A DNA stretch of 64,000 bases from an uncultured Acidobacteriota bacterium (GTDB lineage Bacteria; Acidobacteriota; Thermoanaerobaculia; Thermoanaerobaculales; Sulfomarinibacteraceae): positions 64,979 to 128,978 of the forward strand of contig CAVQJV010000003.1 in assembly GCA_963712805.1 (NCBI GenBank), given 5' to 3'. This document shows positions 10,533-56,577 of the stretch, one piece after another; the first letter of the stretch is position 1; each line of letters opens with the position of its first letter. Both the position numbers and the translations under genes were made by a program. The notes beneath the pieces are model-generated. The model searched no databases and was not told the DNA's origin. It was given only the letters and a program-made list of their open reading frames with translations.

Positions 10533-10593
10533 GACAGCACCCCCGCCGGAGTCTTCCACCCTACCGCGGCCACGCCTGTCAAAGGCGACATCG

Positions 10594-15139: not shown

Positions 15140-15263
15140 CGCCGGAGACGTCGCCGATGACCCACGACGAGGCCGCGCCCCGTCGAACGCGAGAGCGCCG
15201 CGACGCGCTGTCCGTCGCGACCTGCAATCGGTGTCTCGTCGACCTCTCGGAGTAGAAAGGTAT

Positions 15264-18154: not shown

Positions 18155-18211
18155 CCATGCCGGAGTGTTTTCTCTCATGGTAATGTGCCACCATTCCCTC
18201 AGGGAGGCCGT

Positions 18212-31066: not shown

Positions 31067-31170
31067 CGGGCGCCTCCGTGAGCGGGTTTTCTCAGGTTAG
31101 CACGCGGCTCCAGCTCTGCTACCCTCGGGCATCAACGGGCCGGACACGCGCCCAGCGCAGGAGGTTCCCC

Positions 31171-40202: not shown

Positions 40203-41588
40203 TCATGAGTTCGATGCTGCGGAACTCCGGACCCGGCACCGATCTTCGATCTCCTCGATACCTCGGATCAGTACTCGATCATAACCGTCGTAGAGATCCT
40301 GTTGCGTCGGATGGACCTCGATATCCGGCCGAATACCGATGCCGACGTACTCCCTCCCATCGGGGTAGACGCATTTCATAGTCACGACGCGGAAGTTGCC
40401 GCCGCCAGGAAGAGGCACTCGGAGAGGATTGCCGGTGCTGCCGGCGGTCATTTCGCCGACCAGGGTGACCCGCTTCGCACTGTGGAGGGGGACGATGAAG
40501 TCCTCCGCCGAGCTGTAGGTCGAGGGCCCGGTCAGGATGACGATCGGGCCGAGGTACCGCTTGCCCTCACGGGGTTGGATCTCGTGGGTGATCTCGGTCC
40601 ACACCGGCTCGTTGCCCCACGCGCGATCGGCGGCGACGTAGTGGGGGATTTTCGACACCCACGCCTGCACGGGACGATCGATCAAGAACCGGGTCACGTC
40701 GTCCGCATTGGTACTGTCTCCACCCGGGTTGAATCTCAGATCGATGATCATGCCCTTCGTGGCGGCCAGGTCGAGCTCGTTGATCAGCTTCTCGAATTCG
40801 CCCTTGAGTTCCTCGCTGTCGAAGTTGGCGATTTTGACGTAGACGATGCCATCCGGCAGCGTGCGGGATTCGAGGAGGGGCTCATCCATGTACCAGTGGA
40901 GCAGACGGCACAAGAACCGAGCGCCGCTTCGGTCCTGCGAGTTCCTTGTCACCTCCACGTTGCGCAGCGTACCGTCGATGTCCCGCACCTCGAGCGTGAC
41001 CTTGCTGCCCTTGGGGCCGGTCAGGAGGCCATACATGTTGATCGCCTCGTCGGCCTGCTTCGTGCCGCGGGAGTTGAAGCGGAGCACGTGATCCTGAAAA
41101 TAGGTTCTGACGGGAACCCCGTCCCCGACCTTCGTGATCTCGAGGCCGGGATAGATGCGTTGCTCCCGCAACTCGTCCGTATCTCCCGTGAGCGCCACGA
41201 CGAATTTGTCTTCGACCACTTGGATTTCGATCGGCGGCGAGTCGGTGCCGGGCTTGAAAGGGCCCCAAGGGGGGTTGACCGCGGTGTGTCCGTCGTGGAG
41301 CAGAGCGGCAAATTCCATCAATACCCGGTAATAGGACTCGAGATCGGGAGCCGCAATGACCTTGGGAATGTACTCCTGCACTTTCGCGTCCCAATCGAGA
41401 TCCGGGATCCGGTCGAAAAACGGGTATGCGTACTTCGCTTCCGCCCAAACCACCATCAAACCCCAGATCTTCTGCTCGACCGATCCGGTCCAATCCATCT
41501 CTCGAACCGCGGTGGCTCCTGGCTCTCGAGCCGAGACTGCACCGATGCTGAAGTAGAAAACCAGCACCAGAACGAGAGTCCTCTTCAT
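40203..41588 (-). CDS. S41 family peptidase (tail-specific protease-like), secreted, intact
   Basis: MKRTLVLVLVFYFSIGAVSA signal peptide; ...MIIDLRFNPGGD...ILTGPSTYSSAEDFIVPL.... Sampled GC about 55%. Confidence 0.85.
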   Translation of the reverse strand: MKRTLVLVLVFYFSIGAVSAREPGATAVREMDWTGSVEQKIWGLMVVWAEAKYAYPFFDRIPDLDWDAKVQEYIPKVIAAPDLESYYRVLMEFAALLHDGHTAVNPPWGPFKPGTDSPPIEIQVVEDKFVVALTGDTDELREQRIYPGLEITKVGDGVPVRTYFQDHVLRFNSRGTKQADEAINMYGLLTGPKGSKVTLEVRDIDGTLRNVEVTRNSQDRSGARFLCRLLHWYMDEPLLESRTLPDGIVYVKIANFDSEELKGEFEKLINELDLAATKGMIIDLRFNPGGDSTNADDVTRFLIDRPVQAWVSKIPHYVAADRAWGNEPVWTEITHEIQPREGKRYLGPIVILTGPSTYSSAEDFIVPLHSAKRVTLVGEMTAGSTGNPLRVPLPGGGNFRVVTMKCVYPDGREYVGIGIRPDIEVHPTQQDLYDGYDRVLIRGIEEIEDRCRVRSSAASNS

Positions 41589-42664
41589 CAGTTCCGATCC
41601 TCCAGGTGGAGCCCGGGCTGCACCGCCTTCGTGGTTTCCGAATATCCGGATATCCGATCCAACGCACCCTCCAGCGTCGCACCGTTCGAGGTGAAGACGC
41701 TTTCCCAGCCCGAGATCTTCTTCTCCAGGCTCGCACGGTTGAGTTCCGGGCTGTAATCGGAAAACGATCGTGGTCCGATCGCTCCTGTTGCATGGATGTC
41801 CAAGATCCGCGCCGGACCGGCGGCGTCCAGATTGAAGTCCGAGAGCCTCAGCTCCTTGGGTTCCGGAGAGTCCTTGGTCCGAAACCGCACGGTTCGGTTG
41901 GTGAGATCACAGACGTAGGACCACTGTGTACCCTCCCATGCCATCTCGTCGACGATCTTCATCCCGTAATCAGTCGGTGACAGGGATGAGTCTCCGCTCT
42001 TGTTGATGAGCGTGGCAGCGTTGACAAAGCGGTCGTCGACATGTGGCGCCTCGGGGTTGGGCGTCAGCGCAGCATCCTTCAAAACAACCGGGTTAGCCCC
42101 GCCAAAACCCTGGTAGGTTTTCAGCAGATCCATTTCGGTCGCGTAGGTCTCGTTGCAGAGAACGGTGATCGGCATGGCCGCACCGAATGTCAGGACGGGT
42201 TTGCCGTCGATGAACTCGATGGCAGCGGTGTTGCCTTCAGCGTCAGCAGCGAAAAAGTGCCAGTTCCAACCATCGATGACCACCTCGCGCGCACTGGCGA
42301 CGACCTGGTCCACCGACTCGAAGCTGTCGAGCAGATATTGCATCCACAACATCATGAAAAATCTCGGTTTGGTGGGATCTTCAGGGTACTTGTTCTCGAC
42401 CAGGGTCATCTCCTGAATGAAGAGCCCTGCCTCATTCATGCCGCCATCGACAAAATCCCGACAGAAGGTGTTGAAGGTGATCGATCCGTATTTGGAGACC
42501 CACGAAAGATGGGGATTGGGAACCGACCGCCCGTACGCCAGTTCGTTCCACGACCGGCTTTCCTTCCAGATCCCCCGATGGTTGATCACCACCACGCCCG
42601 CGGTGAACTTCTGACTGTCGAGATTCCGCCCGGCCACGATGGCGCCGTCTTTTTCAAAGGGTGT
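41588..42664 (-). pseudogene. Choloylglycine-hydrolase-family (Ntn, linear amide C-N) hydrolase lacking its signal peptide and N-terminal Cys nucleophile
   Basis: The frame opens only at ...TPFEKDGAIVAGRNLDSQ.... The family normally has a Cys about 10-15 aa before the GRN(L/M)D motif. A stop lies 3 codons upstream of F, and the sequence beyond is the 5' end of the divergent transposase gene. Confidence 0.7.
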
Positions 42665-43254
42665 TCATCGAGGGCGGGATCTACCACGTTTACTGCCACG
42701 CCGCTCGCGGCGAGGCGGTGTTTGCGGACCAGACGGAGGCGGCTGCGTTCGTCGATATCCTCCAAAAGATCAAGTGCCGGGACAACCTGGTCGTTTTCGC
42801 CTGGGCGCTGATGTCCAACCATTATCACATCGCGTTGCGGGCTGCCGAGGTTCCGTTGTGGCGCAGTATGGCGTCCATTCAGGGGCTGACGACCAAGGGT
42901 TTCAATCGGAGGCATCGGGTGTACGGCCCGCTCTGGCAGGGCAGATACAACTCGAGTGTTGTTGCAGATGAAAGGTACCTCTTCCAGTTGGTCGCGTATG
43001 TTCATCTGAACCCCGTCAGTGCCGGCCTCGTGGATGATCCGGCGAGGTACGAGTGGAGCGGGCACCGCGAGATCATCGGCAGCGACGACCATGCCCTCGT
43101 CGACGCCGATGAAGTGTTGATGATGTACGGCGACAACCGCAGAGCAGCACGAAGGGCGGACATGACGAGCCTGAACACCACGGACACCACCGCGCGGATC
43201 GGCTGTCGAAGCTGGATCAAACCCTTGTTGGTGATGGATGAAGGCGTGAGCTGA
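42661..43254 (+). mobile_element. IS200/RAYT-like Y1 tyrosine transposase gene, apparently 5'-truncated
   Basis: VFIEGGIYHVYCHAARGEAVF...LMSNHYHIAL...LWQGRYNSSVV...YVHLNPVSAGLV.... The usual N-terminal basic segment before GGIYHV is missing. I found no flanking REP or IS ends. Confidence 0.7.
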
Positions 43255-43420
43255 AATCATTGTGATGTTGTGATACCTGGCACGATTCATCTTTCATCCA
43301 GAGTAAAACGCGGCTCGCCACTCGTCAAACGCTGTGACGCCACTCCGAGTTGACACCGTGATCGTCCGGGCCCGGCAATGAAGATGATTCCCGCGAACCG
43401 GTGATACGCGGCCTTCTGAC

Positions 43421-44851
43421 TCAATCCCAAAGATCGCGGGGGTAGTCCTCGTACAACCTCTGGAATCCTCGACGGTACTCGCTTTCCGCCCGCCAGACTT
43501 TCCACAGGTCGCTTGGAACCAAGGGATGGCGATGCTGACGGAGCGGGGTCCTGCGAACTCCCGCCACTGCCTGCTCGGCGAACAGCGTTGCAAAGCGACG
43601 CAGGGGAATCTCGGTGGGAGTGATGGGATGCATACAGTCATGAAGATCGAACGCATTGTCGATCCAGATCCGAGGTTCCGCCTGTCGATAATCCGGTGTG
43701 CCGGGCGACGGCGTGCACACCGTGAAGCTGCTCTGAGCCGGTGGCAGGCGGTTGACGTAGTCCCGTAGTTCTTGGAAGTCGGTCTCCGTGTACTCGGGGT
43801 GGACCATGAATGCCGCATGGACCGCCACCCCCAACCCGCGAAGGGTATCCAGCGCCTTTTCGTTGTGAACGACACTACCGCCCTTCTTGTACTGCTTCAG
43901 TTCTTGGTCGTTGGTGAACTCGAACCCAAGAAACGCGGCGTCAAGCCCGATTTCACGCCATCGCTTGAACAGCTCGGGTGACCGGTTGACTGTCGTGGCG
44001 CGGGTCCACGCGAAATAGCGCTTGCGGATTCCCAGGCCGGCAATGGCCTCCGCCAACTCCCAGGCAAAGCCCTCGTCGATGAAGTTCTCATCGTCACAGA
44101 AGTAGATGTGCTTGGTAGGCGTCTGTGCGATTTCATCGGCGACCAAGGCGGCGGGTCGGGGGCGGTGCTCTCCACCACAGAGAAATGGGACCACGCAGAA
44201 TGTGCACTTCATCCGGCAGCCCCACGACGTACGAACCAGACTCACAGGGGGGAACAGGCGCTCCCACGGCGCCATCTCCTCGCAAGCCCACACCGATCGG
44301 TATCGCTCGGGCTGCCACAGGTCGCGTCGCGGTTTCGGTAGGCTCGCGGGATCCGGGAACCGTGGCCACCCTGCGGCGGCCTCAAGGTTGAAGCGATCAC
44401 CGGTCAATAGGACGTCTGGAATGCCGTCCGGGGGGTCTCCTTTCTCCAGCGAGTCCAAGATCTTCGAAAACGGGCCACAGCCCTCGCCACGGACGATGGC
44501 GTCGATTTCGGGGATATTGAAATCTGACGGGGCTACCGTTGCGTGGTGGCCGCCCACCACAACAAACGCGTCGGGGAGGCAGTCGCTGGTGAGATGCGCC
44601 AGCTGTTTGACGAAAGTCGCCTCATGCGTGTAGCTGGTGAAGCCGACCACGTCGGGTCGAAATCGATGCAGGCAAGCTCGGAGAGCGCGCACCGGATGGC
44701 GGGCAAGCCGAAGATCCAGAACGCGCGCCGCGTGAGGTTCCCGCACGACCGCCGCGATGTACCCAAGCCCGATCGGCTCGAGCCGTTGAAACGCCTCGAG
44801 CCCGAGGATTGTGCGCAGCCGCGCCTTCGGTTTGACCAGCAACACCCGCAT
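43421..44851 (-). CDS. B12-binding-domain radical SAM protein (class B)
   Basis: MRVLLVKPK...DVVGFTSYTHEA...VVVGGHHATV (B12-binding-like N-terminal domain). TSWGCRMKCTFCVVP is the CxxxCxxC motif. Alternative starts at 44866 and 44932. Confidence 0.8.
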   Translation of the reverse strand: MRVLLVKPKARLRTILGLEAFQRLEPIGLGYIAAVVREPHAARVLDLRLARHPVRALRACLHRFRPDVVGFTSYTHEATFVKQLAHLTSDCLPDAFVVVGGHHATVAPSDFNIPEIDAIVRGEGCGPFSKILDSLEKGDPPDGIPDVLLTGDRFNLEAAAGWPRFPDPASLPKPRRDLWQPERYRSVWACEEMAPWERLFPPVSLVRTSWGCRMKCTFCVVPFLCGGEHRPRPAALVADEIAQTPTKHIYFCDDENFIDEGFAWELAEAIAGLGIRKRYFAWTRATTVNRSPELFKRWREIGLDAAFLGFEFTNDQELKQYKKGGSVVHNEKALDTLRGLGVAVHAAFMVHPEYTETDFQELRDYVNRLPPAQSSFTVCTPSPGTPDYRQAEPRIWIDNAFDLHDCMHPITPTEIPLRRFATLFAEQAVAGVRRTPLRQHRHPLVPSDLWKVWRAESEYRRGFQRLYEDYPRDLWD

Positions 44852-44963
44852 GCCAATCCCGATCATACCTGGTTGATTCTGAGGACACGGGGTCCTATGC
44901 CGGTCGCAGCGCTCACGTTCAGGGGGCTTCACTATCGTCCGAGTTTCGCGTTACAGTTGCGGC

Positions 44964-45722
44964 ATGGGCCGAGAAGCCGACTCCAAGCAATCCCCTGTCG
45001 CCCCACATCCGCACCTGCACGCCTATTACTCGGAGGTGGACGATCGACGACGATTCGTGAACCGCCTCTTCGACCGCGGGGCCCGGCATTACACATGGAT
45101 CAACCACGTGATGTCATTTGGCACTGGCGTCTGGTATCGCCGGGAAGCCCTGCTGCGCGCGGGTCTGAAACCGGGGATGCAGGTCCTTGACGTCTGCGTG
45201 GGCAGCGGCCAGGTCGCTCGTGCCGCCCGCGGAGTCGTGGGCACGACGGGAACGGTCGTTGCGCTCGACGCGAGCTTCGGCATGCTCCTGGAAGCACGGA
45301 AGCGTGTCGCCGTTCCTTCGATGCAGGGGCTGGTTGAGGCGATCCCTGTGGTCGACGAGTTCGCGGACTTCGTCACGATGGGCTATGCCCTGCGGCACCT
45401 CGCCGACCTTCGATGTGCGTTCAGCGAGTTCAAGCGCGTGCTGCGGCCTGGCGGCACGCTGTTGATGATCGAGTTCGCTCGGCCGACGTCGCGTGCCGCG
45501 TACCACGCGCTGAAGCTCTACTTGCACTGGATTGTCCCGGGCATCGCACGCCTCGGGAGCCGGGAAGCAGCGACCATGATGCGGTATTTCTGGGACACCA
45601 TCGAAAACTGCGTGCCGCCGCGGATCATCCTCGACACTCTGCAGGAGGTTGGTTTCAAACGGGCAGCCAAGGGCGGGCAGATCGGGCTTCTGGCCGAGTA
45701 CACTGCCCAGAAACCGGTGTGA
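44964..45722 (+). CDS. Class I SAM-dependent methyltransferase, UbiE/COQ5-like
   Basis: ...YTWINHVMSFGTGVWYRREAL...VLDVCVGSGQVA...LRPGGTLLMIEF.... Confidence 0.8.
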   Translation: MGREADSKQSPVAPHPHLHAYYSEVDDRRRFVNRLFDRGARHYTWINHVMSFGTGVWYRREALLRAGLKPGMQVLDVCVGSGQVARAARGVVGTTGTVVALDASFGMLLEARKRVAVPSMQGLVEAIPVVDEFADFVTMGYALRHLADLRCAFSEFKRVLRPGGTLLMIEFARPTSRAAYHALKLYLHWIVPGIARLGSREAATMMRYFWDTIENCVPPRIILDTLQEVGFKRAAKGGQIGLLAEYTAQKPV

Positions 45723-45991
45723 GCCGTGCCCACGAGGTCAAGGCAGTGGCACGGCCTTCAGCCCGCGACGTTCGATTTCATCGAGCAGCTTGGGGAGAAC
45801 CGAGAGGATCATGCGGTCACCCGCCGTGCCAGGGCTGACCGGACCGTCGTACACGAGCGGCTCGATCTGCCTCTGGTTTGACAGAACCTCGAAACTCCAA
45901 ATGATCGGATCACCGTTCATGTGTAGAATAGTGCCTGGCCAGCGTGCAACCGGAGAAGCGGTCTCTCAATTCATAGCGGCAGGAGTAGGCT

Positions 45992-46273
45992 GTGGAAAAG
46001 AACGAACTGCGGGATCAGCTGAAGACCCTGACCATTGAGTCCCTCAACCTGCAGGGAATGACGCCCGACATGATCGCCGACGAAACCCCGCTGTTTGGTG
46101 AGGGTATGGGCCTGGACTCGGTCGACGCACTCGAGCTGGCGGTGGCGGTCGAGAAGAGATTCGGCATCAGGATAGCGGACGAAGCCGCTGCCAGAGAGGC
46201 GTTCGCGTCGATCGCGTCTCTCTCGGCGTTCGTTGAGCAGCGACTGGGACAGGAGCAAGCGCGCTCTGAATGA
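45992..46273 (+). CDS. Acyl carrier protein
   Basis: 93 aa with ...GEGMGLDSVDALELAVAVEKRFG (phosphopantetheine Ser motif). GTG start 6 nt after AGGAG. ATGA overlap with the KS gene. Confidence 0.85.
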   Translation: MEKNELRDQLKTLTIESLNLQGMTPDMIADETPLFGEGMGLDSVDALELAVAVEKRFGIRIADEAAAREAFASIASLSAFVEQRLGQEQARSE

Positions 46274-47502
46274 CCGATCGTCCACGAGTCGTCGTCACAG
46301 GAATCGGCGCAGTCAGCGCCTGGGGCTGGACATCCGGAGACCTTCAGCGGGGACTTCGAACCGGTCAATCGGCGATTTCGGAGCTCACGCTCTTCGACTC
46401 ATCCGCGCAGCGTACCCATCTTGCGGCGGAGGTACCTCCACCGTCTGACAGTCGACCCGCCAGCATCGATGCATCGAGACATCTCTCACGCGCCGATCGG
46501 TTCGCGGTAGCAGCCGCCTCCGAGGCCGTTGACCAGGCCGATCTCTCGCCCTCCATGAATCCCGTAGGCGTGTTCTTCGGCGGCAGCACCGGCGGCATGT
46601 GGGAGTGCGAAGAGTACGTGGCTCGTCTGCTTGGCGTCCGGACTGGTCGCCCGGCCATCGCATGGCTGGCCTCTCAGCAGATCAACTGTCCTGGGGACGC
46701 CGTCGCGAGGCATTTGCGCCTCACCGGGCCGACTCTCACCATATCCTCGGCGTGCGCGTCAGGAACGCTGGCCGTCGGTGCAGCCCTTGACGCGATTCGA
46801 CGCGGTGAGGTCAACGTGGCCATCGCGGGCGGATCGGACGCGCTTTGCATGCTGACATACTCCGGGTTCAACGCCCTGCGCTCAGTCGACCCGGAACCGT
46901 GTCGACCGTTTCGTGCTGATCGCGTCGGGTTGAGCCTCGGTGAAGGCGCGGGTGTGCTGGTCCTGGAGACAGCGCGGTCAGCCGAATCCCGCGGGGCGAA
47001 ACCGCTCGCCGAGCTGCTCGGATGGGGTGCGTCCTGCGACGCGCACCACATGACAGCTCCTCACCCCGAAGGCGAGGGGGCCGCACGCGCCATTGTCGCG
47101 GCTCTTTCGGACGCGGAACTGCAACCCGATGAGATCGGTTTCGTCAACGCCCACGGTACCGGCACGCCCCTCAACGACATCTCCGAGTGCAGAGCACTGC
47201 ACCGGGTGTTCGGCCCGCATGCTTCGGGAATCCCGGTCACCGCAAACAAGGCTTCAGTGGGTCACCAACTCGGCTGCTCAGGGGCGGTCGAGGCCGTCGC
47301 AACGGTGCTTGCTCTCGTACATCGCGAGATCCAGCCGACGGCGGGAGGTGGCGAGGTCGATGGGGAGATCGATCTCGACGTGGTGCTCGAGCACCCACGC
47401 TCGATACCTCCCGGCAGCATCGGCGTCAGCGTGAGCTTCGCCTTTGGAGGGGCATGCGCTGCCGTGATCGTCGCGGACCGGACGATCGGGGCGAGATCAT
47501 GA
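46270..47502 (+). CDS. Beta-ketoacyl-ACP synthase (KAS I/II, KS-alpha-like), catalytic triad present
   Basis: ...TISSACASGTLAVG... (Cys), ...CDAHHMTAP... (His), ...VNAHGTGTPLND... (His), ...KASVGHQLGCSG.... Confidence 0.9.
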   Translation: MTDRPRVVVTGIGAVSAWGWTSGDLQRGLRTGQSAISELTLFDSSAQRTHLAAEVPPPSDSRPASIDASRHLSRADRFAVAAASEAVDQADLSPSMNPVGVFFGGSTGGMWECEEYVARLLGVRTGRPAIAWLASQQINCPGDAVARHLRLTGPTLTISSACASGTLAVGAALDAIRRGEVNVAIAGGSDALCMLTYSGFNALRSVDPEPCRPFRADRVGLSLGEGAGVLVLETARSAESRGAKPLAELLGWGASCDAHHMTAPHPEGEGAARAIVAALSDAELQPDEIGFVNAHGTGTPLNDISECRALHRVFGPHASGIPVTANKASVGHQLGCSGAVEAVATVLALVHREIQPTAGGGEVDGEIDLDVVLEHPRSIPPGSIGVSVSFAFGGACAAVIVADRTIGARS

Positions 47503-48725
47503 GCCACGAGGCCGCGGTCATTACCGGAATCGGTGCTGTGACCGCTGCAGGTTGCGGGATTGCCCGTCTGGCAGAGGTTCTTGGCACGTCACAGGTCATC
47601 ACGACTGAGGTCGATCGATCCGCCGGGTACCACCGAGCAGGATCGGCACGCACTGCGGTGACCGCACTCCACGTCGACACTTCCGAGTGGCTTTCACCGC
47701 TTGCCGGCCGGCGCATGAGTGTGGGTTCGAGATACGCCGTTTCCGCGGCACGAATGGCGGTGGAGTCGGCTGCCGTCGAGCCCGACATCCTGTCTCGCGC
47801 CTCGATCACGAACGGGACCGCATATGGGGCGGCCGAAGTCACCGAGAAGTTGCTTCGTCAGATTCTCCTGGACGGGCCGGAGGCGGCCTCACCGGCGCTG
47901 TTCACCGAGTCGGTTGCCAACGCCCCTGCCGCTCAGGTGGCCATATCTATGGGGGTGAAAGGCCCAAACGTCACGATCACCCAGCGCCAGGCAAGCCCTC
48001 TGCTCGCTTTGGTCGAGGGGGCCGCGATGGTGACCACGGGTCGAACGCCGGTTGGGCTCGTCGGTGCGGTTGACGAGCTGAATCCCCTGCTGCACTCGGT
48101 TCTCGACCGGTTTGGAGCCCTCGCCCGTCCGGACCAGGATGGATGTGAGGTCGCACGGCCGTTCGATGCACGTCGCCGTGGGTTTCTGGCCGGCGACGGC
48201 GCGGCGTTCCTCGTACTGGAGAACAGGACTGCCGCGCGAAGACGCGGCGCCCGGATTCTGTGCCGCGTCGTCACCTGCGGCAGAGGATTCGATCCCGACG
48301 CGCCGCGGGCCGGTTGGGGTCGAGACCCATTCGTGCTTTCGGAGACCGTGTCTCGTCACCTGCATGCTGCCGGGATCAGTGCCGAGCAGATCGACCTGAT
48401 TGTCGCGTCGGGGTGCGGCTCGCCGTCGGCCGACCGAATCGAAGCCCTCGTCTTGAGATCCGTATTCAAGGATCATCCTCTGCCGCCGCTGCTCGCGCCG
48501 AAGTCCGTGACAGGCGATCACGGGGCTGGGTTCCTGGCTGCGTCCGTGCTGGCCGCCTGCGGCTCGCCGTTCGGAGCCACGCCCGGGTTCGAAGAACCGG
48601 ATCCGGAGCTCGGGGTCGTGCCGCATCGAGGTGGTGATCTCCTCTCCCCTCGGCTGACGCTCATCACGAGCTTTGCGGCCGGGGGAGCCGTGGCTTGGGC
48701 TGTCCTGGAGCGCTCCGAAGAATGA
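47499..48725 (+). CDS. KS-like protein lacking the Cys-His-His triad (Cys->Gln); chain-length-factor/KS-beta-like partner
   Basis: GPNVTITQRQASP aligns without gaps to GPTLTISSACASG of the upstream KS, so Q sits at the Cys position. The His positions read GRGFDPDAP and VASGCGSPS. ATGA overlap with the KS gene. Confidence 0.8.
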   Translation: MSHEAAVITGIGAVTAAGCGIARLAEVLGTSQVITTEVDRSAGYHRAGSARTAVTALHVDTSEWLSPLAGRRMSVGSRYAVSAARMAVESAAVEPDILSRASITNGTAYGAAEVTEKLLRQILLDGPEAASPALFTESVANAPAAQVAISMGVKGPNVTITQRQASPLLALVEGAAMVTTGRTPVGLVGAVDELNPLLHSVLDRFGALARPDQDGCEVARPFDARRRGFLAGDGAAFLVLENRTAARRRGARILCRVVTCGRGFDPDAPRAGWGRDPFVLSETVSRHLHAAGISAEQIDLIVASGCGSPSADRIEALVLRSVFKDHPLPPLLAPKSVTGDHGAGFLAASVLAACGSPFGATPGFEEPDPELGVVPHRGGDLLSPRLTLITSFAAGGAVAWAVLERSEE

Positions 48726-48906
48726 CCCGACGTGTGGCTGCTGCGATGCCGGCGTTTCAAGTCGAAGCGCTCGTCGCCGAGGTTGTTCGGCGAACCCTGG
48801 CCGTGCTGCCGGATCTCCTGGTGGTGGTCGTAGATCGGCGCGGCGAATCCCGTCAGCTGACCTCTCTTGCCGTTGCCGTTTGGGCGTGTTGAGAAACCAC
48901 ACATGA
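48722..48906 (+). other. Possible ~60-codon coupling ORF between the CLF-like and KR genes, frame-inconsistent as assembled
   Basis: ATG 48722 overlaps the CLF stop (ATGA) and reads MTRRVAAAMPAFQVEALVAEVVRRTLAVLPD.... A different frame ends at TGA 48904-48906, overlapping the KR ATG (ATGA). No family recognised. Confidence 0.3.
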
Positions 48907-49637
48907 GCGGCGCCACAGATATCACGTTGGTCACTGGGGGCACGAAGGGGATTGGTCGAGCAATCGTCGAGGCCCTCGTGGGGTCAGGCAAGCACGTCGC
49001 GGCCACATGGCGATCTAACGAGGTACTCGCTCGTGAAGTCCAGGAACAAAGCGGTGGTGTCGCTACGGGATTCGCGTGTGATCTTCGGGATCGCAGCCGG
49101 ACGTCATCGGTGGTGGACGAGGTCGAACAGAAGCTTGGGCCGATTGTTGGGCTCGTGAACAACGCGGGCATTTAGGTGAGCACCTTGCTGGCAATGACGA
49201 CCGATGAGACGTGGGACGAGATTGTCGACATCAACCTGGGCGGCGCCTTTCGGGTGACGCGGGAAGTCCTTCGTCACATGGTTTCCCGCCGGCGTGGGGC
49301 GATTGTCAACGTGTCGTCTCTGAGCGCGCTTCACGGCGTTCCGGGGCACGCCGCATACGCGGCGTCGAAGGCGGGCCTCATCGCAATGACACGGTGCGTG
49401 GCGCGCGAGATGGGGCGGCGCAACATCCGCGTCAATGCGGTCATACCCGGATATGTCGCGACGGATATGACCTCGGACCTCCCTGACAGCATTGTTCAAA
49501 CGCTGCGATCCGGCGAGGTCCTGCCGATTGGCACCGACGTGGCATCGGTCGCCGAAGCCGTACCTTTCTTGCTCTCCGATCGCGCCCGGTCCGTTACCGG
49601 GCAGTCGATCATCGTCGATGCCGGAACCACAGCTTGA
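48903..49637 (+). pseudogene. 3-oxoacyl-ACP reductase (FabG-like SDR) with in-frame TAG at 49173-49175
   Basis: MSGATDITLVTGGTKGIGRA...LVNNAGI-TAG-VSTLLAMTTDETWDEIVDINL...SSLSALHGVPGHAAYAASKAG.... It aligns without gaps to NNAGITRDNLLMRMKDEEW of E. coli FabG, and the stop falls on one residue position. Confidence 0.85.
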
Positions 49638-49709
49638 CGGATTCACACGCATTGCCGATGGCGACGTGACTGGCCGCAAAGCGCCACGCCCTGGCTATAC
49701 TCGTGACCG

Positions 49710-50795
49710 ATGAACGTCGCTCCTCCAACCGCTGAGCCGTCCCCGGCCGGCGCGGGCCCGCCGGAGCTGGGGCCGCGCGCAGCGGACCTTCCCCACGCCC
49801 CCGAGGTGGGCTGGGCCAAGCGCCTCCTCGGGCGGTACCACGTCACCGGGGCATTCTGGTTCCGCTTCCACTGGTGGGGGGTATCGATCGTGCCGAAGTG
49901 GGGAGTCGGCGCCCTCGTGGCGCTGTTCACCCCCTTCTTCTTCATCTGCCTGATCAAGGTCCGCCGCGCCATCAGCCGTAACCTCGACGCCGTTCTCGGC
50001 CCCTGCGGCTTCCTCCGCCGGCAGCTCCGGATCTTCCGCACCATGTGGACCTTTGGCTGGACGCTGTCCGAGCGCTACGAGCGCCTGGCCACCGACCGCT
50101 CCTTCCGGATCGACATTGATCTGCCCCGCTGGCTGTCCCTGTTCGAGTCCGGTCACGGCTTCGTGATGGTCACCGCCCACCTGGGAAACTTCGAGGTCGG
50201 CTCCATGCTGCCCGCCTTCGAGGAGGACCGGGAGGTCCACGTGGTGCGCGAGAAGGAGGCCGACCCGGAAGCCCAGCAGTTCATCCAGGAGCTGCTCGTG
50301 CGGGCCGGCGGAACCCGCTACGTCACCCACTTCGAGGGCGAGCACGCACTCCAGGGCGTGGAGCTCGTCCACGTGCTGCGCGACGGTGGCATCGTCGGCG
50401 TCCAGGGGGACCGACCCCGCAGCGGCGGTCGCACCGTGCCGGTGACCCTGTTCGGACGGCCGTTCCCGCTGCCCGCCGGTCCGGCAGCCCTGGCCCGCGC
50501 CGCCGAGGTTCCGCTGGTGCCGATCTTCGTCTTCCGCGTCGCCCGTCTCCACTACCGGATCGAGATCCGCGACCCGATCCCCGTCGACCGCTCCTCGAGC
50601 CGCGAGCGCGACGTGGCTGCGGCGATGGGCAGGGTGGCGGCCGATATCGAGTGGGCGATCCGCCAGCAACCCCACCAGTGGTTCTGCTTCCACGATGTGT
50701 GGCCCAGGAGCGTGCAGGGCACAGGCCCCGGCGCGCGTCCTGATATCGGGTTGCCTCCTTGGCCTCTGCCCTGCACGCTCCTTTCAATGCGCTGA
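49710..50795 (+). CDS. LpxL/HtrB-family (lipid A biosynthesis-type / lysophospholipid) acyltransferase
   Basis: ...RRAISRNLDAVLG...GHGFVMVTAHLGNFEVG (HX4E/D motif) ...GGIVGVQGDRP...GPAALARAAEVPLVPIF...QPHQWFCFHDVW. Confidence 0.75.
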   Translation: MNVAPPTAEPSPAGAGPPELGPRAADLPHAPEVGWAKRLLGRYHVTGAFWFRFHWWGVSIVPKWGVGALVALFTPFFFICLIKVRRAISRNLDAVLGPCGFLRRQLRIFRTMWTFGWTLSERYERLATDRSFRIDIDLPRWLSLFESGHGFVMVTAHLGNFEVGSMLPAFEEDREVHVVREKEADPEAQQFIQELLVRAGGTRYVTHFEGEHALQGVELVHVLRDGGIVGVQGDRPRSGGRTVPVTLFGRPFPLPAGPAALARAAEVPLVPIFVFRVARLHYRIEIRDPIPVDRSSSRERDVAAAMGRVAADIEWAIRQQPHQWFCFHDVWPRSVQGTGPGARPDIGLPPWPLPCTLLSMR

Positions 50796-50806
50796 GCGCA
50801 TCTGGA

Positions 50807-50886
50807 GGAGCCCGTACCGCAGAACCCCACTGACGCGCTGACAAGACAACGAAGAGCTCTGAATTGGGCGATGCGGTACGGGCTCC
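50807..50886. terminator. Perfect 15-bp inverted repeat with a 50-nt spacer between convergent operons; candidate bidirectional terminator or structured RNA
   Basis: ggagcccgtaccgca (50807-50821) and tgcggtacgggctcc (50872-50886) are exact reverse complements. There is no U-tract. Confidence 0.35.
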
Positions 50887-50915
50887 CAGCCCTCGGCGGG
50901 CCGGGGTGGGCTCCA

Positions 50916-51689
50916 CTACGCCATGTACGTGCTGATCGTGCCGTTTGCTGCAACTGCACCACCGGAGACGACCTCGAACAGGTAGGTCGACAGCGGCGGC
51001 AACGCCGCGTCGAGGCGGATGGTGACCTGCAGAGGGAATGCCACCGGCAGGCCGGTTTGGAGCACAACGTCTCGGGCGCCCACCAGATAGCCGACCCTGG
51101 GCTCCGGGTCGCCCCCGGCGCGCCGGCGCCGCAGCGCCTCGAAGGCCGCTGCCGCCTGGGCCGCGACCTCGAGGGCGACCAACGGCGGTGCGAACCCCTG
51201 CCCCGCGAAGGCTGAGCCCTGGGGGACCGCAGCCGAGGCCACGAGCCGGTCGTCGCCCGCCTCCACCACCGCGTCGAGGAGCAGCGCCGGACCACGGTGT
51301 GGGATCAGCGCCTCCGGCGCGGGGAAGCGCTCGCCGCCCGCTGCCACCTCACCGACGGCAGCCCCGGGCGCCGCACAGCGGCCGCTCGCCACCACTCCCT
51401 TGCTGGCCAGGTCGGAACCGCGGCGGAGCTCGAAGGCCCACTCGGCCTCACCCCTCGGCGACATCTGGAGCTCGAGCCCGTCGCCGGGTTCCACCACCTG
51501 CCGCAGCCTGAGCACGGTCACCGCGACCAGCTCGAGCTCGCGGTCGACGATGCGGCGCAACGCGTCCCGCACCAGCGCCAGGTGGGCGATGCCGGGAAGG
51601 ATCGGCCTCCCCTCGAAGTGCCCGACGAAGTGAGGCCAGCCGGGCTGGATGATGATCCCCTCGCTGAACGGGCCGACCACCGATGTCAC
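50916..51689 (-). CDS. Double hot-dog 3-hydroxyacyl-ACP dehydratase (FabZ/FabA-like plus second hot-dog domain)
   Basis: ...GWPHFVGHFEGRPILPGIAHLAL... is the dehydratase His motif; the second half has ...LIPHRGPALLLDAV.... I chose a GTG start overlapping the upstream stop (GTGA at 51686-51689). Confidence 0.75.
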   Translation of the reverse strand: MTSVVGPFSEGIIIQPGWPHFVGHFEGRPILPGIAHLALVRDALRRIVDRELELVAVTVLRLRQVVEPGDGLELQMSPRGEAEWAFELRRGSDLASKGVVASGRCAAPGAAVGEVAAGGERFPAPEALIPHRGPALLLDAVVEAGDDRLVASAAVPQGSAFAGQGFAPPLVALEVAAQAAAAFEALRRRRAGGDPEPRVGYLVGARDVVLQTGLPVAFPLQVTIRLDAALPPLSTYLFEVVSGGAVAANGTISTYMA

Positions 51690-52870
51690 GCCGGCCGGCG
51701 ACCCGACACCGCGCCCACCAGGAAGGCCGGGTAGACCTCGCGGATCCGCCGTACGTCCGGATACAGGCCGCACTCGACGAAGCCCGCGGACGCCAGCAAC
51801 CCCAGCCACTGCTCAGGGGTCAGGAAGCCGCCGTTGGGGCGCGAGGGCGGCTCGAGCCGCGGCGCGCGGAACGCCTCCAGCAGGTTGAACACCAGCTCGG
51901 TGTGCAGGGCCACGCCGTTGAAGGGCCGCAGGCACTCACCGAAGACAAGGAGCCCGCCCGGCCGCAACGCGTTCCGGACCTCTCCGAGCGTCAACCGCAG
52001 GTCCTTCGCGACGTGCAGGGTGTTGACCGCGAAGACCAGGTCCTGACTCTCGGGCGCCACCCCCTGGTCGGCGAACGGACGGTCCATGTCGAGGATGGAG
52101 AAGGACAGTACCTCGGGGTAGCGCTCGCCAAGCGCCCGCCGGGCACGCCTGAGAAACAGGGGGGCGAGCTCGGTGAAGTGGTACCTGCCCGGCAGCCGAT
52201 CGGACGCCAGGGCCTGGAGCAGCGCCTCGGCGCCGCTGCCGAGGCCGCCCCCCAGCTCGAGCACGTCGTCGGGGGCGGTCGGCAGCAGCGCCCGGGCCGC
52301 GGCGGCCGCCACCGCGTTGTTGACGGCGTAGAGCGGGTTGGCGTTGGAAAAGTAGGCCGGCCACAGGTCGAAGTGGTTCGGGCCGAAGAGCACCGCCTCG
52401 CCCGAGGTCTCGCCGCGCAGGAAGGCGGGGTAGTGCGCGGCCGCGACGTCGGCAACCCGGTAGGTGGGCAGCGCCGCGGGGTCGAGCACCCGCTGCCGCT
52501 CCTCGACCTCGCCCGGGTCGGGTGTGGAGAGGGGGGCGCGACTCGAAAAGCGACTGGTGCCATCGGCCTCGGTGGTCTGCTCGAGGTAGCCGTGACCCTC
52601 GAGAAGGCGCAGCAGCCAGTTCAGGACCACATCGGCTCGCATGGAGTCGAGGCCATGGCGCGCCGCCAGCTCGGCAACGCTGACCGGCGCCGCGAGGTCG
52701 CGGGCCAGCCCACACTCGGCCAGCACCCGCAACGCGAGCCGGACGACGTGCTCCTCGTGGAGGTCGCAGGAGGCGACGAAGCGGTCGTCGAACAGGGGCA
52801 ACAGCGCCGCGGGCAGGAGCTCGCGCCGGCGGTCGACGCCGCCGCTCCCGGCGGTGACCACTGGGCTCAC
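51686..52870 (-). CDS. Class I SAM-dependent methyltransferase with an N-terminal helical/dimerisation-like domain
   Basis: ...DVLELGGGLGSGAEALL...ILDMDRPF...DLVFAVNTLHVAKDL...LRPGGLLVFGE.... I chose the GTG start at 52870. Confidence 0.7.
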   Translation of the reverse strand: MSPVVTAGSGGVDRRRELLPAALLPLFDDRFVASCDLHEEHVVRLALRVLAECGLARDLAAPVSVAELAARHGLDSMRADVVLNWLLRLLEGHGYLEQTTEADGTSRFSSRAPLSTPDPGEVEERQRVLDPAALPTYRVADVAAAHYPAFLRGETSGEAVLFGPNHFDLWPAYFSNANPLYAVNNAVAAAAARALLPTAPDDVLELGGGLGSGAEALLQALASDRLPGRYHFTELAPLFLRRARRALGERYPEVLSFSILDMDRPFADQGVAPESQDLVFAVNTLHVAKDLRLTLGEVRNALRPGGLLVFGECLRPFNGVALHTELVFNLLEAFRAPRLEPPSRPNGGFLTPEQWLGLLASAGFVECGLYPDVRRIREVYPAFLVGAVSGRRPA

Positions 52871-52919
52871 CGGTGCCCCCCGGTTCGACGGCGCACGCGG
52901 GAACGCGCAGCACTCTTCA

Positions 52920-52950
52920 CCATTGGAGCGTAGCATGCGCCCCATTGGAG
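52920..52950. repeat. Direct 9-bp repeat ccattggag x2 (22-bp period) flanking a gcatgc palindrome, 50-80 bp upstream of the minus-strand methyltransferase start
   Basis: Copies at 52920-52928 and 52942-52950, read directly from the sequence. A possible operator or promoter element. Confidence 0.3.
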
Positions 52951-53109: not shown

Positions 53110-53313
53110 CGACGTCTTGAGCGAGGCCGGCGTCGGCCTGCCTCTTGGCCCTTGAACAGGGCGGTTGGCAACCGTGACGCCGGCCCATTCGCCGGGGCGC
53201 CATACCGTGCTCCAAGGCGCCCGCCCGTGCGGCAAAGCGCCAGGGCGTCAACAGCGCCACCCATCATCCACCGCGGGCGCGACACTCTCCGGCGTCGTCA
53301 GAGGTTGCAGAGA

Positions 53314-54496
53314 TCAGGACATCGTCACCCGTTCGGTCATCGGGAAACCGCGTTTCCTCATCTCTTCGACGAAGAGCGCTGCCGGGACACCGGTTTCCAC
53401 CGGATGGACGCCGCGCGGGGTCTGGCCCCGGGCGTTCATGATGGCGACGATGGCGCCGTCGAAACCGGTGGTCCGTTCCATGGCGGTGAACCCGGTCTTC
53501 TCGTCGTAGTAGTCGATGACCTCGATGAGCGACTCGGCCGGTTTCCCGTCCTTCTCGCCGACCGCCTTGATCCTCAGGATGACGAAGTCCTTGTCGCCCT
53601 CCCGGGCCCGGATCCTGGGTTCGACACAGGCGTGGAAGACATCCCTCGGCACGACCTCGACACCGTTGACCGTGACCGGCTCGAGATCCAGCAGACCCAT
53701 GTCGATCACGGTTTTCCACTGTTCGAAGTGCCCCTTCCAGCGCAGGGTCTTGTTCTGGAAGGTCTGGACCTTGCCCGCGAAGGTCCAGGGCGCCGTCGAG
53801 GTCCCGCCGCCGGCCACGAAGGCCTCCATGGTGCCGATCGGCGGCGGAAACTCGACCGCGTCTTCGTAGTCTTCCCGCTGGAAGGTCGGCACCATGGTGA
53901 CCTTGCCGTTCTCTGAGGAACACCGCCTCGCCGTAGTACTCGTTGGTGAGCCCGGCGATGTTGAAGGTGCAGCGGTAGTTGAAGGGCGGCTCCGGGTGCT
54001 GCATGTTGCCGCCGTCCCACATGAAGACGTGATCCGCCCGGTCGAGCAGGGACATGGCGCGAACCATGAGGGAGGTGCCCATCCCGGGCACCTGGCCGCA
54101 GTCGGGGATGATCGCGATGCCGGCTGATCGCGCCGCCGCGTCGAGCTTGAGCTGCTCGAGCACGAGATCGGTCTTGCCCCCGAGATCGCACATGCAGGCG
54201 CGCGCCCGGATCGCCACCCCGGTGATGGCGGGGTTGAACCAGTACGGCACGGCGGAGAGGAACGAGTCGACGCCGGTGAGGAACGACTCGAGTCTCTTCT
54301 CGTCGGCGACATCGAGCTCGACGGCGGAGGCGATGGATGTGTTCAGGAGGTCGTTGACCCTCCGGGCCGAGGCCTCGGCCGCGCGAAGATCGACATCCGC
54401 GATGAGGACCTTCTTCGCATCACCGAACCTGGCCATGTCATAGGCCGCTGCGGTTCCCTGCCGGCCGCCTCCGAGCACTGCGTAGGTGTATTTCAT
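53314..54496 (-). pseudogene. Saccharopine dehydrogenase family NAD(P)-binding protein; one frame change near 53900
   Basis: MKYTYAVLGGGRQGTAAAYDMARFG...IIPDCGQVPGMG... joined to ...NGKVTMVPTFQREDYE...TLRWKGHFEQW...TAMERTTGF.... Confidence 0.75.
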
Positions 54497-54526: not shown

Positions 54527-55723
54527 CTAGACCCGTTCGATGATCATGGCGATGCCCTGTCCGACACCGATGCACATGGCGCACAGGGCAAAGCGGCCGC
54601 CGCTCCGCCGCAGCTCATACGCGGCGGTCGTCACCAACCGTGCGCCGCTCATCCCGAGCGGGTGGCCGATGGCGATGGCGCCGCCGTTGGGGTTGACCCG
54701 CGGGTCGTCGTCGGCGAGACCGAGGTCCCGGGTGACCGCGAGGGCCTGCGAGGCGAAGGCCTCGTTGAACTCGATGACATCCATCCGCTCGAGGCTCATC
54801 CCGGTCCGGGCGAGCAGCTTCCTGGTCGCCGGCGCCGGGGCGAACCCCATGATCCGGGGCTCGACGCCGGCGGTGGCCATGGCCACGACGCGCGCCATGG
54901 GCGTCAGCCCGTGCCGGCCGGCGGCGGCGTCGGACGCCAGCACGAGGGCGCAGGCGCCGTCGTTGACCCCCGAGGCGTTGCCCGCCGTCACGGTCCCGTT
55001 GTCCCGGAACAACGCCTTGAGCCTCCCCAGCTGCTCGAGGGTCGTGCCCGGGCGCGGGTGCTCGTCGGTCGTCACGACCAATGGGTCCTGTTTCCGGCGC
55101 GGCACCGTCACCGCGATGATCTCGTCGGCGAGCCTGCCGTTCGCCTGCGCCGCCGCGGTCTTGGCCTGACTCCAGGCTGCGAATCGATCCTGATCCTCGC
55201 GCGAGATCCCGAACTCTTCGGCGACGTTCTCGGCCGTCTCCGGCATCGAGTCGACGCCGTACTGGCGCTCGAGGGCGGGGTTGACGAACCGCCAGCCGAT
55301 GGTCGTGTCGAAGAGCTCGGCCTGCCGGCTGAACGCCTCGGTGGCCTTGGCCATGACGAAGGGTGCGCGGGACATGGACTCCACCCCACCGGCGATGATC
55401 AGATCCTGCTCACCCGCCTTGATGGCGCGAGCCGCAATGCCGATGGCATCCATCCCGGAGCCGCACAGCCGGTTCACCGTGGTCGCCGGTGACCTCGGCC
55501 GGCAGACCGGCGAGGAGGAGCGCCATCCGCGCGACGTTGCGGTTGTCCTCACCGGCCTGGTTGGCGCAGCCGAGGATCACGTCGTCGACCGCCGCGGGGT
55601 CGAGCCCGGGATTCCGCTGCAGCAGGGCCCGCAGGGGAATCGCGGCGAGGTCATCCGTCCGGACCGTGGCGAGGGCGCCGCCGTAGCGGCCCACCGGGGT
55701 TCGAATCGCATCGCAGATCAAGG
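54527..55723 (-). pseudogene. Acetyl-CoA C-acyltransferase (thiolase, PcaF/PaaJ/AtoB-like); one frame change near 55490
   Basis: MTEALICDAIRTPVGRYGG... then ...VNRLCGSGMDAI...NEAFASQ...GGAIAIGHPLGMSGARL...CAMCIGVGQGIAM. Confidence 0.9.
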
Positions 55724-55749
55724 CTTCGGTCATCTTGAACTCCATTGGC

Positions 55750-56577
55750 ACCGAACCGGTCATGGCGGTGTCTCGCCCGCGGCGCTCCCTGAGGCCGGGA
55801 TCAAGTCCGCGAAATTCGACGCCCCGGACGGCACCAGCGCGCGGAGGATTTCGAGCTCTCGCGCGGTCGGCGCCTCGGTCGTGACGAGCGGTGTCCGCGA
55901 CCTCGAGCAGCCACCCCGTGGCCGCGACCGCGGTCTCGGCCGACACTCCCGGGTGGAGATGGGTCAGGACGAGCTCGCCGCTTGAAGCATCGGGTTCGAG
56001 GATTCCGAGATCGGTGATCACCGCTTCCGGGCCGCGGCCGGGGAGGCCGAGTTCCAGCCTCGATCTGCCGCCGTGGAACATCCCCACGGTGGTCATGAAA
56101 TCGAGGGTGTCGACAAAGCTCTTTGGGTTCTGGCGCAGCAGAACGAGGGTTCGGCGACAGAAACCCGCGATCTCCGGCGCCCCGCCGGCGCCGGGAAGCC
56201 GCACCTTGGGCTTGTCGATAATCACCGATCACCGTCGAGTTGAGGTTGGCGAAGCGGTCGATCTGGGCGGCGCCGAGAAAACCGGTCCTGATCCAACCGC
56301 CCTGCAGCCAGTAGTTGAACATCTCCGGCACCGAGACCACCGCGAGCGCGGTCCGACTCAGCTCCGGATCGCCGATGGAAAGCGGCAGCACCGTGGGTTT
56401 GGTGTCCAGGGTCCCGCTCTCATAGATCATCGAGAGATCGGGGGCGTGGGTCCGCCGAGCGAGGTTGGCGGCCTTGGACGGCAGCCCGATGCCGATGAAG
56501 ACCACGTCGTCGGGATCGAGCAGCCGCGACGCGGCCACGACCATCATCTCTTCCGGGCTGTAGGCGGGCTCAGACAT
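55750..56577 (-). pseudogene. CoA-transferase subunit B (3-oxoacid/glutaconate CoA-transferase family); at least 2 frame changes
   Basis: MSEPAYSPEEMMVVAASRLL...IYESGTLD...FLGAAQIDRFANLNSTVIGDY then DKPKVRLPGAGGAPEIA...VITDLGILEPD...LTHLHPGVS.... Confidence 0.8.

Follow-up and report, generated by a model that had tools for sequence, protein, structure and literature searches.

The window analysed here is a 64-kb stretch of acidobacterial DNA, and the feature studied, at 43.4-52.9 kb, is a group of genes built around an acyl carrier protein (ACP), a ketosynthase (KS) and a KS-like chain-length factor (CLF). A preliminary description of the locus had presented it as an orphan acyl-chain cluster with an LpxL-type acyltransferase and three methylating enzymes, two of them S-adenosylmethionine (SAM) methyltransferases and one a B12-radical-SAM enzyme. 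The gene calls were checked with Pfam, which backed all of them, and the genes are as follows.

43421-44857, minus strand: class B B12-radical-SAM enzyme (rSAM), HpnR-like, Pfam B12-binding and Radical_SAM; 478 aa, intact
44964-45722, plus strand: UbiE/COQ5-family SAM methyltransferase (MT1), Pfam Ubie_methyltran (E=1e-29); intact, divergent from the rSAM gene
45992-46273, plus strand: ACP, Pfam PP-binding, GLDSV motif with the DSV serine; intact
46270-47502, plus strand: FabF-like KS, Pfam ketoacyl-synt N and C domains, catalytic Cys present; intact
47499-48725, plus strand: CLF, Pfam ketoacyl-synt and Ketoacyl-synt_2; full length (408 aa), intact
48722-48892, plus strand: small open reading frame (ORF) of 56 residues, the stump of a GT2 glycosyltransferase gene
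48903-49637, plus strand: FabG-like SDR ketoreductase (KR), Pfam adh_short (E=8e-58); premature in-frame TAG at codon 91 (49173-49175)
49710-50795, plus strand: LpxL/LPLAT-family acyltransferase, Pfam Lip_A_acyltrans
50916-51689, minus strand: fused ApeI-like and ApeP-like double-hotdog dehydratase; 257 aa, the same length as all homologues; intact
51686 to ~52945, minus strand: stand-alone methyltransferase (MT2), Pfam Methyltransf_12, similar to polyketide synthase (PKS) C-methyltransferases; intact

The couplings reported earlier were present, with ATGA overlaps at 46270-46273, 47499-47502 and 48722-48725 and a GTGA overlap between MT2 and the dehydratase gene at 51686-51689. As MT2 runs past 52870, the feature ends about 75 bases further on than first stated. 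The ACP scored 79.5 bits against NCBIfam NF006617, exceeding the cutoff of 70. The SACASG, HMTAP and NAHGTGT motifs in the KS translation form a Cys-His-His active site. The CLF scored 33 bits against Ketoacyl-synt_2 (cutoff 25) and has Gln at the catalytic Cys position, in the motif TITQRQASP; Gln or Glu replaced the Cys in 32/32 aligned CLF homologues, with a conserved TxxQR[QE]AG motif. In PDB searches, the KS and CLF sequences matched FabF, ishigamide-type and actinorhodin KS/CLF structures with similar strength, which did not separate these subfamilies. The window dehydratase matched the Pfam ApeI-like family over its N half (E=0.013) and the ApeP-like family over its C half (E=0.011), both below threshold and in the correct order, while precomputed Pfam hits placed PF22818 and PF22817 in 103/103 of its homologues, one of them 98% identical; its matches to chains A and B of PDB 6qsr were weak. 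In the acyltransferase gene, a 1-nt deletion just ahead of the ancestral stop adds 17 residues to a protein that is 344 aa long in relatives. All NCBIfam matches of this protein fell under cutoff, including every LpxL/LpxXL-type model, and the best was a PIM acyltransferase model.

No chorismatase, ammonia-lyase, AMP-ligase, LolA or MMPL gene was found in the 64 kb, so the reported absence of aryl-starter and LolA/MMPL genes extends to the whole window. A KS query of the window returned the KS and the CLF alone, Rfam detected no riboswitch or other RNA in it, and a promoter and terminator scan gave a result at chance level. The locus had also been called intact except for the TAG in the KR gene. 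The TAG is there, but the rest of that statement does not hold, given the GT2 stump, a fused stump of ligase and deacetylase, and the 1-nt deletion in the acyltransferase gene.

Homologues of the CLF occur by the hundreds in metagenome-assembled genomes (MAGs) of Acidobacteriota, in both Thermoanaerobaculia and Holophagae, where the surrounding order is AMP-ligase, ACP, KS, CLF, GT2, KR and MMPL, with DUF2062, polysaccharide deacetylase, LpxL-family acyltransferase and ApeI/ApeP-like dehydratase genes also nearby. Two of these relatives, L006 (CAVQXZ010000006.1) and L007 (CAVWIJ010000012.1), are GTDB MAGs labelled uncultured Holophagae. They match the window at 90-96% nucleotide identity per gene, in identical gene order and in five collinear blocks, and the cluster region aligns to the relatives with almost no indels. 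At the protein level, identity to L006 is 96% for the KS and 92% for the rSAM. The block breaks in the L006/L007 alignment fall exactly at the window junctions MT1/ACP, CLF/KR and KR/acyltransferase, and the genes that L006 holds in addition, identified by Pfam and in the case of the chorismatase also by NCBIfam TIGR04444, are these:

L006 2773-3720: FkbO/Hyg5 chorismatase, beyond the rSAM gene
L006 6167-6970: polysaccharide deacetylase, between the UbiE-like methyltransferase and AMP-ligase genes
L006 6992-8422: AMP-ligase, ahead of the ACP gene
L006 11224-11931: GT2 glycosyltransferase, between CLF and KR genes
L006 12881-14053: DUF2062, after the KR gene
L006 14667-15326: LolA_3, after DUF2062
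L006 15331-17661: MMPL exporter, ahead of the LpxL-family acyltransferase gene

The full order in L006 is therefore chorismatase, rSAM, UbiE-like methyltransferase, deacetylase, AMP-ligase, ACP, KS, CLF, GT2, KR, DUF2062, LolA_3, MMPL, LpxL-family acyltransferase, dehydratase and MT2. In a set of 47 related loci whose 10-kb flanks are complete, the ligase (45/47), deacetylase (45/47), GT2 (46/47), KR (44/47) and acyltransferase (42/47) were near-universal, the chorismatase was found in 9/47, L006, L007, L090 and L091 being among the loci that carry it, and MT2 in 4/47. MMPL and LolA counts in this set were low, which reflects the limits of detection and not absence, as tblastn with the L006 proteins missed divergent MMPL genes that Pfam detected in L001 and L003. 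No additional KS lay within 10 kb in the sister loci. GT2 is intact in L004, L006, L007, L087 and L091.

The positions at which the window departs from its intact relatives, together with what remains there, are listed below.

42661-43254, plus strand: IS200/Y1-type transposase-like gene, Pfam Y1_Tnp (E=2e-7); flanking DNA at the left breakpoint, no cluster gene
43288-43290, minus strand: junction J0, retained chorismatase start codon (CAT on the plus strand), aligned to L006 3718-3720 and to L007
45741-45920, minus strand: fusion stump of 60 aa, AMP-ligase residues 1-24 in frame with deacetylase residues ~229-267
~45848-45858: junction J1, 2.07-kb deletion; deacetylase and AMP-ligase lost
~48817-48823: junction J2, 0.59-kb deletion; GT2 body lost
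49646-49662: junction J3, 4.9-kb deletion (L006 12744-17688 absent); DUF2062, LolA-like and MMPL lost
50751-50865: 116-bp insertion between the convergent acyltransferase and dehydratase genes, absent in L006 and L007

At J0, homology to L006 and L007 ends at 43288, exactly at the chorismatase start codon. Where the relatives carry the chorismatase, the window has a low-GC block at 40203-43287 (GC 0.59-0.60, vs about 0.68 for the window), and the replaced left flank also holds a choloylglycine-hydrolase-family gene and an S41 peptidase gene. A 234-codon ORF (42586-43290, minus strand) begins at the retained chorismatase start and runs antisense through the transposase-like gene at 42661-43254 (plus strand); a naive ORF caller could take it for a gene. 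J1 lies at a CCGT..CACGAGC microhomology, J2 is a deletion between CCTGGTG repeats in the alignment with L004, and J3 carries the short direct repeat TCAC. In tblastn with L006 proteins, the ligase part of the fusion stump comprised 24 codons at 45849-45920 with 88% identity and the deacetylase part 39 codons. The small ORF consists of the first ~34 codons of GT2 followed by an out-of-frame tail, with GT2 residues 1-25 matched at 92% by tblastn. Because the window keeps stumps of the ligase, the deacetylase and GT2, the difference represents loss in the window and not gain in the sisters.

Taken together, the locus is probably what repeated deletions have left of an aryl-polyene (APE) pigment-lipid cluster of the xanthomonadin/arcuflavin type in a Holophagae-related acidobacterium, and most likely it no longer works. 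The likeness to aryl-polyene clusters pointed out in the preliminary description was borne out by the gene inventory of the intact relatives. Its view of an orphan design distinct from the APE clusters was not, since the "missing" genes sit at the exact junctions of the window in relatives of 90-96% identity and three stumps remain in the window. With the sisters holding these genes and the window holding their stumps, the locus is without aryl-starter and export genes through recent loss and not by design.

The steps of the intact pathway can be proposed from characterised homologous systems, with the genes read in the sister genomes. A FkbO/Hyg5/XanB2-type chorismatase would provide 3- or 4-hydroxybenzoate, which the AMP-ligase would place on the ACP, and the KS/CLF pair, the KR and the fused ApeI/ApeP dehydratase would extend it iteratively into a conjugated polyene. 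Methyl groups would be added by the UbiE-like methyltransferase, the B12-rSAM and the PKS-type C-methyltransferase. The LpxL-family acyltransferase, GT2 and the deacetylase would then join the chain to a glycolipid anchor, and DUF2062, the LolA-like protein and MMPL would carry the product to the outer membrane. The nine surviving ORFs of the window would make up a pathway without priming, full reduction, lipid anchoring or export. As there is no starter or loading enzyme, no glycosyltransferase or deacetylase and no export module, and the KR is broken, this pathway is probably dead. In Xanthomonas, the cluster KR (FabG3/XanH) is needed for pigment despite the housekeeping FabG (PMC6859482).

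Three public assemblies, each independent of the window's own, cover parts of the decayed region. L173 (Logan assembly, SRR14219474) aligned without gaps to window 44468-46502 at 99.8% identity and covers J1, while L170 (ERZ27251069, a k141 contig; 98.0% identity) and L171 (JGI 3300036927, Ga0392309_0007980; 96.7% identity) both cover J3 and the 116-bp insertion. The insertion, which is also present in L172, is built of inverted copies of its flanks (reverse complements of 50706-50727 and 50872-50886) and folds into a hairpin of -43.5 kcal/mol; it resembles a templated insertion giving rise to a bidirectional terminator-like structure. We considered a repeated mobile element as its source and rejected this, as it occurs once in the window and no further copies were found in the window or the loci.

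Because the window, L170 and L171 all carry J3, the export module (DUF2062/LolA/MMPL) was lost first, in their common ancestor. Codon 91 of the KR gene is TAG in the window and CAG in L006, L007 and L171, and L171 has a nonsense mutation of its own, GGA>TGA at codon 56 (L171 2921-2923), with codon 91 still CAG. The KR was thus inactivated independently in the L171 and window lineages, and by comparison of the assemblies these two inactivations followed the loss of export. The window lineage lost GT2 and the J1 genes as well, and L171 retains at least the 3' part of GT2. In the window, deacetylase and ligase, glycosyltransferase and chorismatase were all lost later than the export module.

The three methylating enzymes have different affinities. 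The rSAM ORF extends to 44932, and its start was placed at MRVLLVKPK, as in the homologues; the protein has a CxxxCxxC motif. Like HpnR and TokK, it combines a B12-binding domain with a radical SAM core. HpnR was its best curated NCBIfam match and TokK its sole PDB match, and the rSAM family is well conserved, with identities of 56-68%. An assignment as the HpnR hopanoid C-3 methylase was rejected, the score of 200 bits being far under the equivalog cutoff of 650 (TIGR04367). MT1 was likewise not accepted as a UbiE/MenG quinone C-methyltransferase: it scored 138 bits against NF001244 (cutoff 216) and 122 bits against TIGR01934 (cutoff 158), and it belongs with UbiE at the level of the Pfam family only. 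MT2 matched the C-methyltransferase domain of DisA (PDB 6cca, E=1e-25 over ~280 residues), followed by CurJ, AprA, LovB and PsoF. It is homologous to such modular-PKS domains, but it stands alone and is coupled to a dehydratase gene in a type II system. The homology suggests alpha-methylation of a beta-ketoacyl-ACP intermediate.

The rSAM and MT1 genes adjoin the KS core in a subclade comprising five independent acidobacterial genomes and metagenome contigs. Among the related loci, the rSAM was always accompanied by FkbO and MT1, and the latter two also occurred without the rSAM in several loci. The possibility, raised in the preliminary description, that the methyltransferase and rSAM genes are unrelated neighbours therefore falls away: they are conserved with the KS core and tied to the aryl-polyene cluster. 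Their travelling with the chorismatase, the aryl-starter module, points to a putative role in head-group tailoring and not in plain acyl-chain branching. In characterised APEs the hydroxyphenyl head group is mono- or dimethylated (bioRxiv 10.1101/2020.12.19.423268). The methyl-branched acyl chain proposed earlier thus survives in part: the C-methyltransferase homology of MT2 makes a methyl-branched polyene chain plausible, while the rSAM and MT1 go with the chorismatase.

APE-type markers lay within reach of the rSAM in 22/82 loci. In Thiocystis violascens DSM 198 (L088, CP003154.1, 2450656-2472086), a 60%-identical rSAM orthologue ends a canonical APE cluster with AMP-ligase, ApeI-like, LPLAT, LolA_3, MMPL, KS, short CLF, ApeP-like and GT2 genes. 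A second context of the family, in 13 loci, is housekeeping synteny with IleRS and RibF, which says nothing on function. A literature search found no characterisation of a B12-radical-SAM enzyme in an aryl-polyene pathway. Elsewhere in the window, genes at 1097-4299, 9626-11253, 15764-16700 and 57496-58917 form a corrinoid-dependent methyl-transfer context. They encode the CO dehydrogenase/acetyl-CoA synthase components CdhD and CdhC, a corrinoid-binding protein and a protein resembling homocysteine S-methyltransferase, together with two methyltransferases of the MttB superfamily, of which the full-length one is not interrupted by an in-frame TAG.

Compared with characterised systems, the intact relative L006 matches the gene inventory of xanthomonadin (Xanthomonas pig/xan) and arcuflavin (Azoarcus arc). 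That inventory comprises a chorismatase, AMP-ligase, ACP, KS, an unusual CLF, KR, dehydratase, methyltransferase, polysaccharide deacetylase, glycosyltransferase, acyltransferases, LolA and an exporter (PMC3949708; PMC6859482). The window copy lacks the chorismatase, ligase, deacetylase, glycosyltransferase, LolA and exporter, and its KR is broken. The acidobacterial form differs from both systems in having no halogenase in view, in adding the B12-rSAM, the UbiE-like methyltransferase and the PKS-type C-methyltransferase, and in a dehydratase that is one fused protein.

With the proteobacterial ape clusters, whose product (apeA-R, E. coli CFT073 and Xenorhabdus doucetiae) is a methylated 4-hydroxyphenyl polyene on a GalNAc-phosphoglycerol lipid (bioRxiv 10.1101/2020.12.19.423268), the acidobacterial cluster shares KS:CLF, ACP, KR, an ApeI/ApeP-type dehydratase, LPLAT, glycosyltransferase, LolA-like protein, MMPL and a SAM methyltransferase. 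It differs in its full-length CLF (408 aa, against the short ApeC type; the Thiocystis CLF has 265 aa), in having one ACP and one KS where the ape clusters have two ACPs and an ApeR-type second KS, in a starter that comes from the chorismatase, in the fusion of ApeI and ApeP and in the extra methylases. The ApeO-like KS of Thiocystis shares 40% identity with the window KS, which is nearer FabF.

Of the features that mark APE clusters, the window itself has an ApeO-like KS with its Cys, a coupled Cys-less CLF and a dedicated ACP. It lacks an intact ApeQ/XanH-like KR, MMPL (ApeM) with a LolA-like protein (ApeL), and the acyl-AMP ligase (ApeH/XanA2/ArcT), while of an XanB2/FkbO/Hyg5-type chorismatase only the start codon at 43288-43290 is left. 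From the lipid-anchoring pair, the ApeD-like acyltransferase is present and the ApeJ-like glycosyltransferase is cut to the ~34-codon stump. We therefore class the locus as a degraded APE derivative and not as a working member, because the transporter, ligase, intact KR and glycosyltransferase features fail.

The cluster is also a compositional mosaic, as seen in window 43421-49637 vs 49710-52945 and in L006 2773-14053 vs 14667-20991. The part from chorismatase to DUF2062 has a GC3 of 0.70-0.78, and the part with LolA, MMPL, acyltransferase, dehydratase and MT2 has 0.85-0.90, which matches the rest of the genome. In L038, the second module shares ~82% aa identity with that of the window and the KS/CLF merely 57-60%. 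The two patterns suggest that the core module has been exchanged horizontally.

Several observations weigh against the interpretation as a recent, dead remnant. The GT2 deletion, the TAG and the replacement of the left flank are found in the window's own assembly alone, and that assembly has many broken genes elsewhere. The TAG arose by C>T inside a CCAGG site conserved in both sisters (TTAGG in the window), and a basecalling error at a methylated site might account for it. The selection tests, lineage-specific counts of nonsynonymous and synonymous changes (N/S) and pairwise Nei-Gojobori dN/dS, did not demonstrate neutral drift. Window-specific N/S was 90/131 = 0.69, vs 0.56-0.65 in the intact sisters, and dN/dS between the window and L171 was well under 1 (KR 0.25, acyltransferase 0.34, dehydratase 0.27). 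The lost genes might also be present in a part of the genome beyond the 64 kb, and this acidobacterial cluster type has no characterised product. In the intact pair L006-L007 the corresponding dN/dS values were 0.08 for the KR, 0.23 for the acyltransferase and 0.61 for the dehydratase; a hint of relaxation is thus given by the KR alone. As the substitution patterns show no neutrality, the interpretation as a pseudogene cluster rests on the lesions. This leaves decay that is very recent, which we prefer, or some remaining function of the surviving genes.

The second of these options would correspond to a cluster that was trimmed after the loss of export yet still works, making an intracellular or inner-membrane polyene lipid or having the missing steps supplied elsewhere in the genome; the window would then show merely the newest lesions, some of them possibly artefactual. 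The dN/dS of 0.25-0.34 between the window and L171, both without the export module, fits this proposal, as do the nine ORFs intact with catalytic motifs and a promoter-like site kept upstream of the ACP gene. However, the 64 kb contain no loading enzyme, starter enzyme or glycosyltransferase, two independent nonsense mutations struck the KR in the export-less clade, and the requirement for FabG3/XanH in Xanthomonas despite a housekeeping FabG (PMC6859482) speaks against rescue of the KR. We consider a cluster still at work improbable.

A bolder variant, which we rate as somewhat less likely again, is a naturally minimised pathway in which the ACP, a self-priming Gln-type KS/CLF, the dehydratase, the C-methyltransferase and the B12-rSAM make a non-aryl, methyl-branched polyene or acyl chain that the LpxL-family acyltransferase places on a membrane lipid. 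If true, either a housekeeping FabG would carry out ketoreduction or the TAG would be artefactual, and selection for the new role would explain why dN/dS in the export-less clade is below neutral.

The orphan pathway of the preliminary description, with a methyl-branched non-aryl chain built on its own ACP, modified by three methylases and transferred by an LpxL-type enzyme to a membrane lipid, is very unlikely, and the cluster comparison largely refutes it. The homology of MT2 to PKS domains that methylate beta-ketoacyl-ACP would agree with such a pathway, as would the retention of the acyltransferase in most related loci and the Gln at the CLF Cys position, as in decarboxylative priming partners. 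Yet the Gln also occurs in relatives with an intact cluster and is therefore no adaptation, the absent genes are found in close relatives and as stumps in the window, the KR is broken, and the rSAM and MT1 go with the chorismatase.

Slightly less likely still is an assembly artefact, with an intact cluster in the true genome, and deletions and stop codon introduced by an error-prone metagenome assembly from long reads. In its favour, the sister records are long-read-style MAG contigs, the TAG stands in a Dcm-type CCAGG motif, and many window genes outside the cluster are split or fused. Of the CCWGG sites conserved in both sisters, 10/33 were changed in the window vs about 6 expected, and window substitutions were C>T/G>A-rich overall, which speaks clearly neither for nor against a systematic error at this motif. 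However, J1, J3 and the 116-bp insertion were found again in public assemblies made independently from other samples, the microhomology at the junctions is typical of in-vivo deletion, and the cluster aligns to its relatives nearly free of indels. L170, L171 and L173 thus settle most of the error-prone-assembly question. The split, truncated or fused genes outside the cluster (3394-4299, 15764-18154, 31000-33739, 38638-40090, 53264-54496 and 54527-56577) include a CdhC fragment and genes for a beta-lactamase, an X-Pro dipeptidyl peptidase (PepX), a saccharopine dehydrogenase, a thiolase and a CoA-transferase, and the C-terminal part of an MttB is fused to a sodium:solute symporter; they reflect either long-read indel errors or widespread pseudogenisation.

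Finally, the likeness drawn earlier to the rhizobial very-long-chain lipid A cluster (acpXL-fabZXL-fabF2XL-fabF1XL-lpxXL) is limited to a superficially similar order of ACP, KS, KS-like, KR and LpxL-family acyltransferase genes, and such a cluster has no support and is extremely unlikely, as the dehydratase is a fused ApeI/ApeP protein and no FabZ, the acyltransferase fell under every LpxL/LpxXL-type cutoff with a PIM acyltransferase model as its best match, and the intact relatives are aryl-polyene-like and add a chorismatase, aryl-AMP ligase, GT2, LolA and MMPL.

With the locus read as a decayed aryl-polyene cluster, recent loss of genes from a common pigment-lipid cluster accounts for the apparent orphan combination of KS/CLF, LpxL and three methylases. 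Hallmark genes that are absent in one genome call for a comparison with close relatives before any new type of pathway is put forward. Together with its environmental relatives, the locus provides a time-ordered natural case of the decay of a biosynthetic cluster, in which export was lost first, followed by independent nonsense mutations and further microhomology deletions. Judged by their gene content, the intact relatives define an uncharacterised acidobacterial variant of the aryl-polyene clusters, and their tailoring set, an HpnR-like B12-rSAM, a UbiE-like methyltransferase and a stand-alone PKS-type C-methyltransferase, is found in no characterised aryl-polyene pathway. As the rSAM family also occurs in the APE cluster of Thiocystis violascens, a purple sulfur bacterium that is in culture, its function is experimentally approachable.

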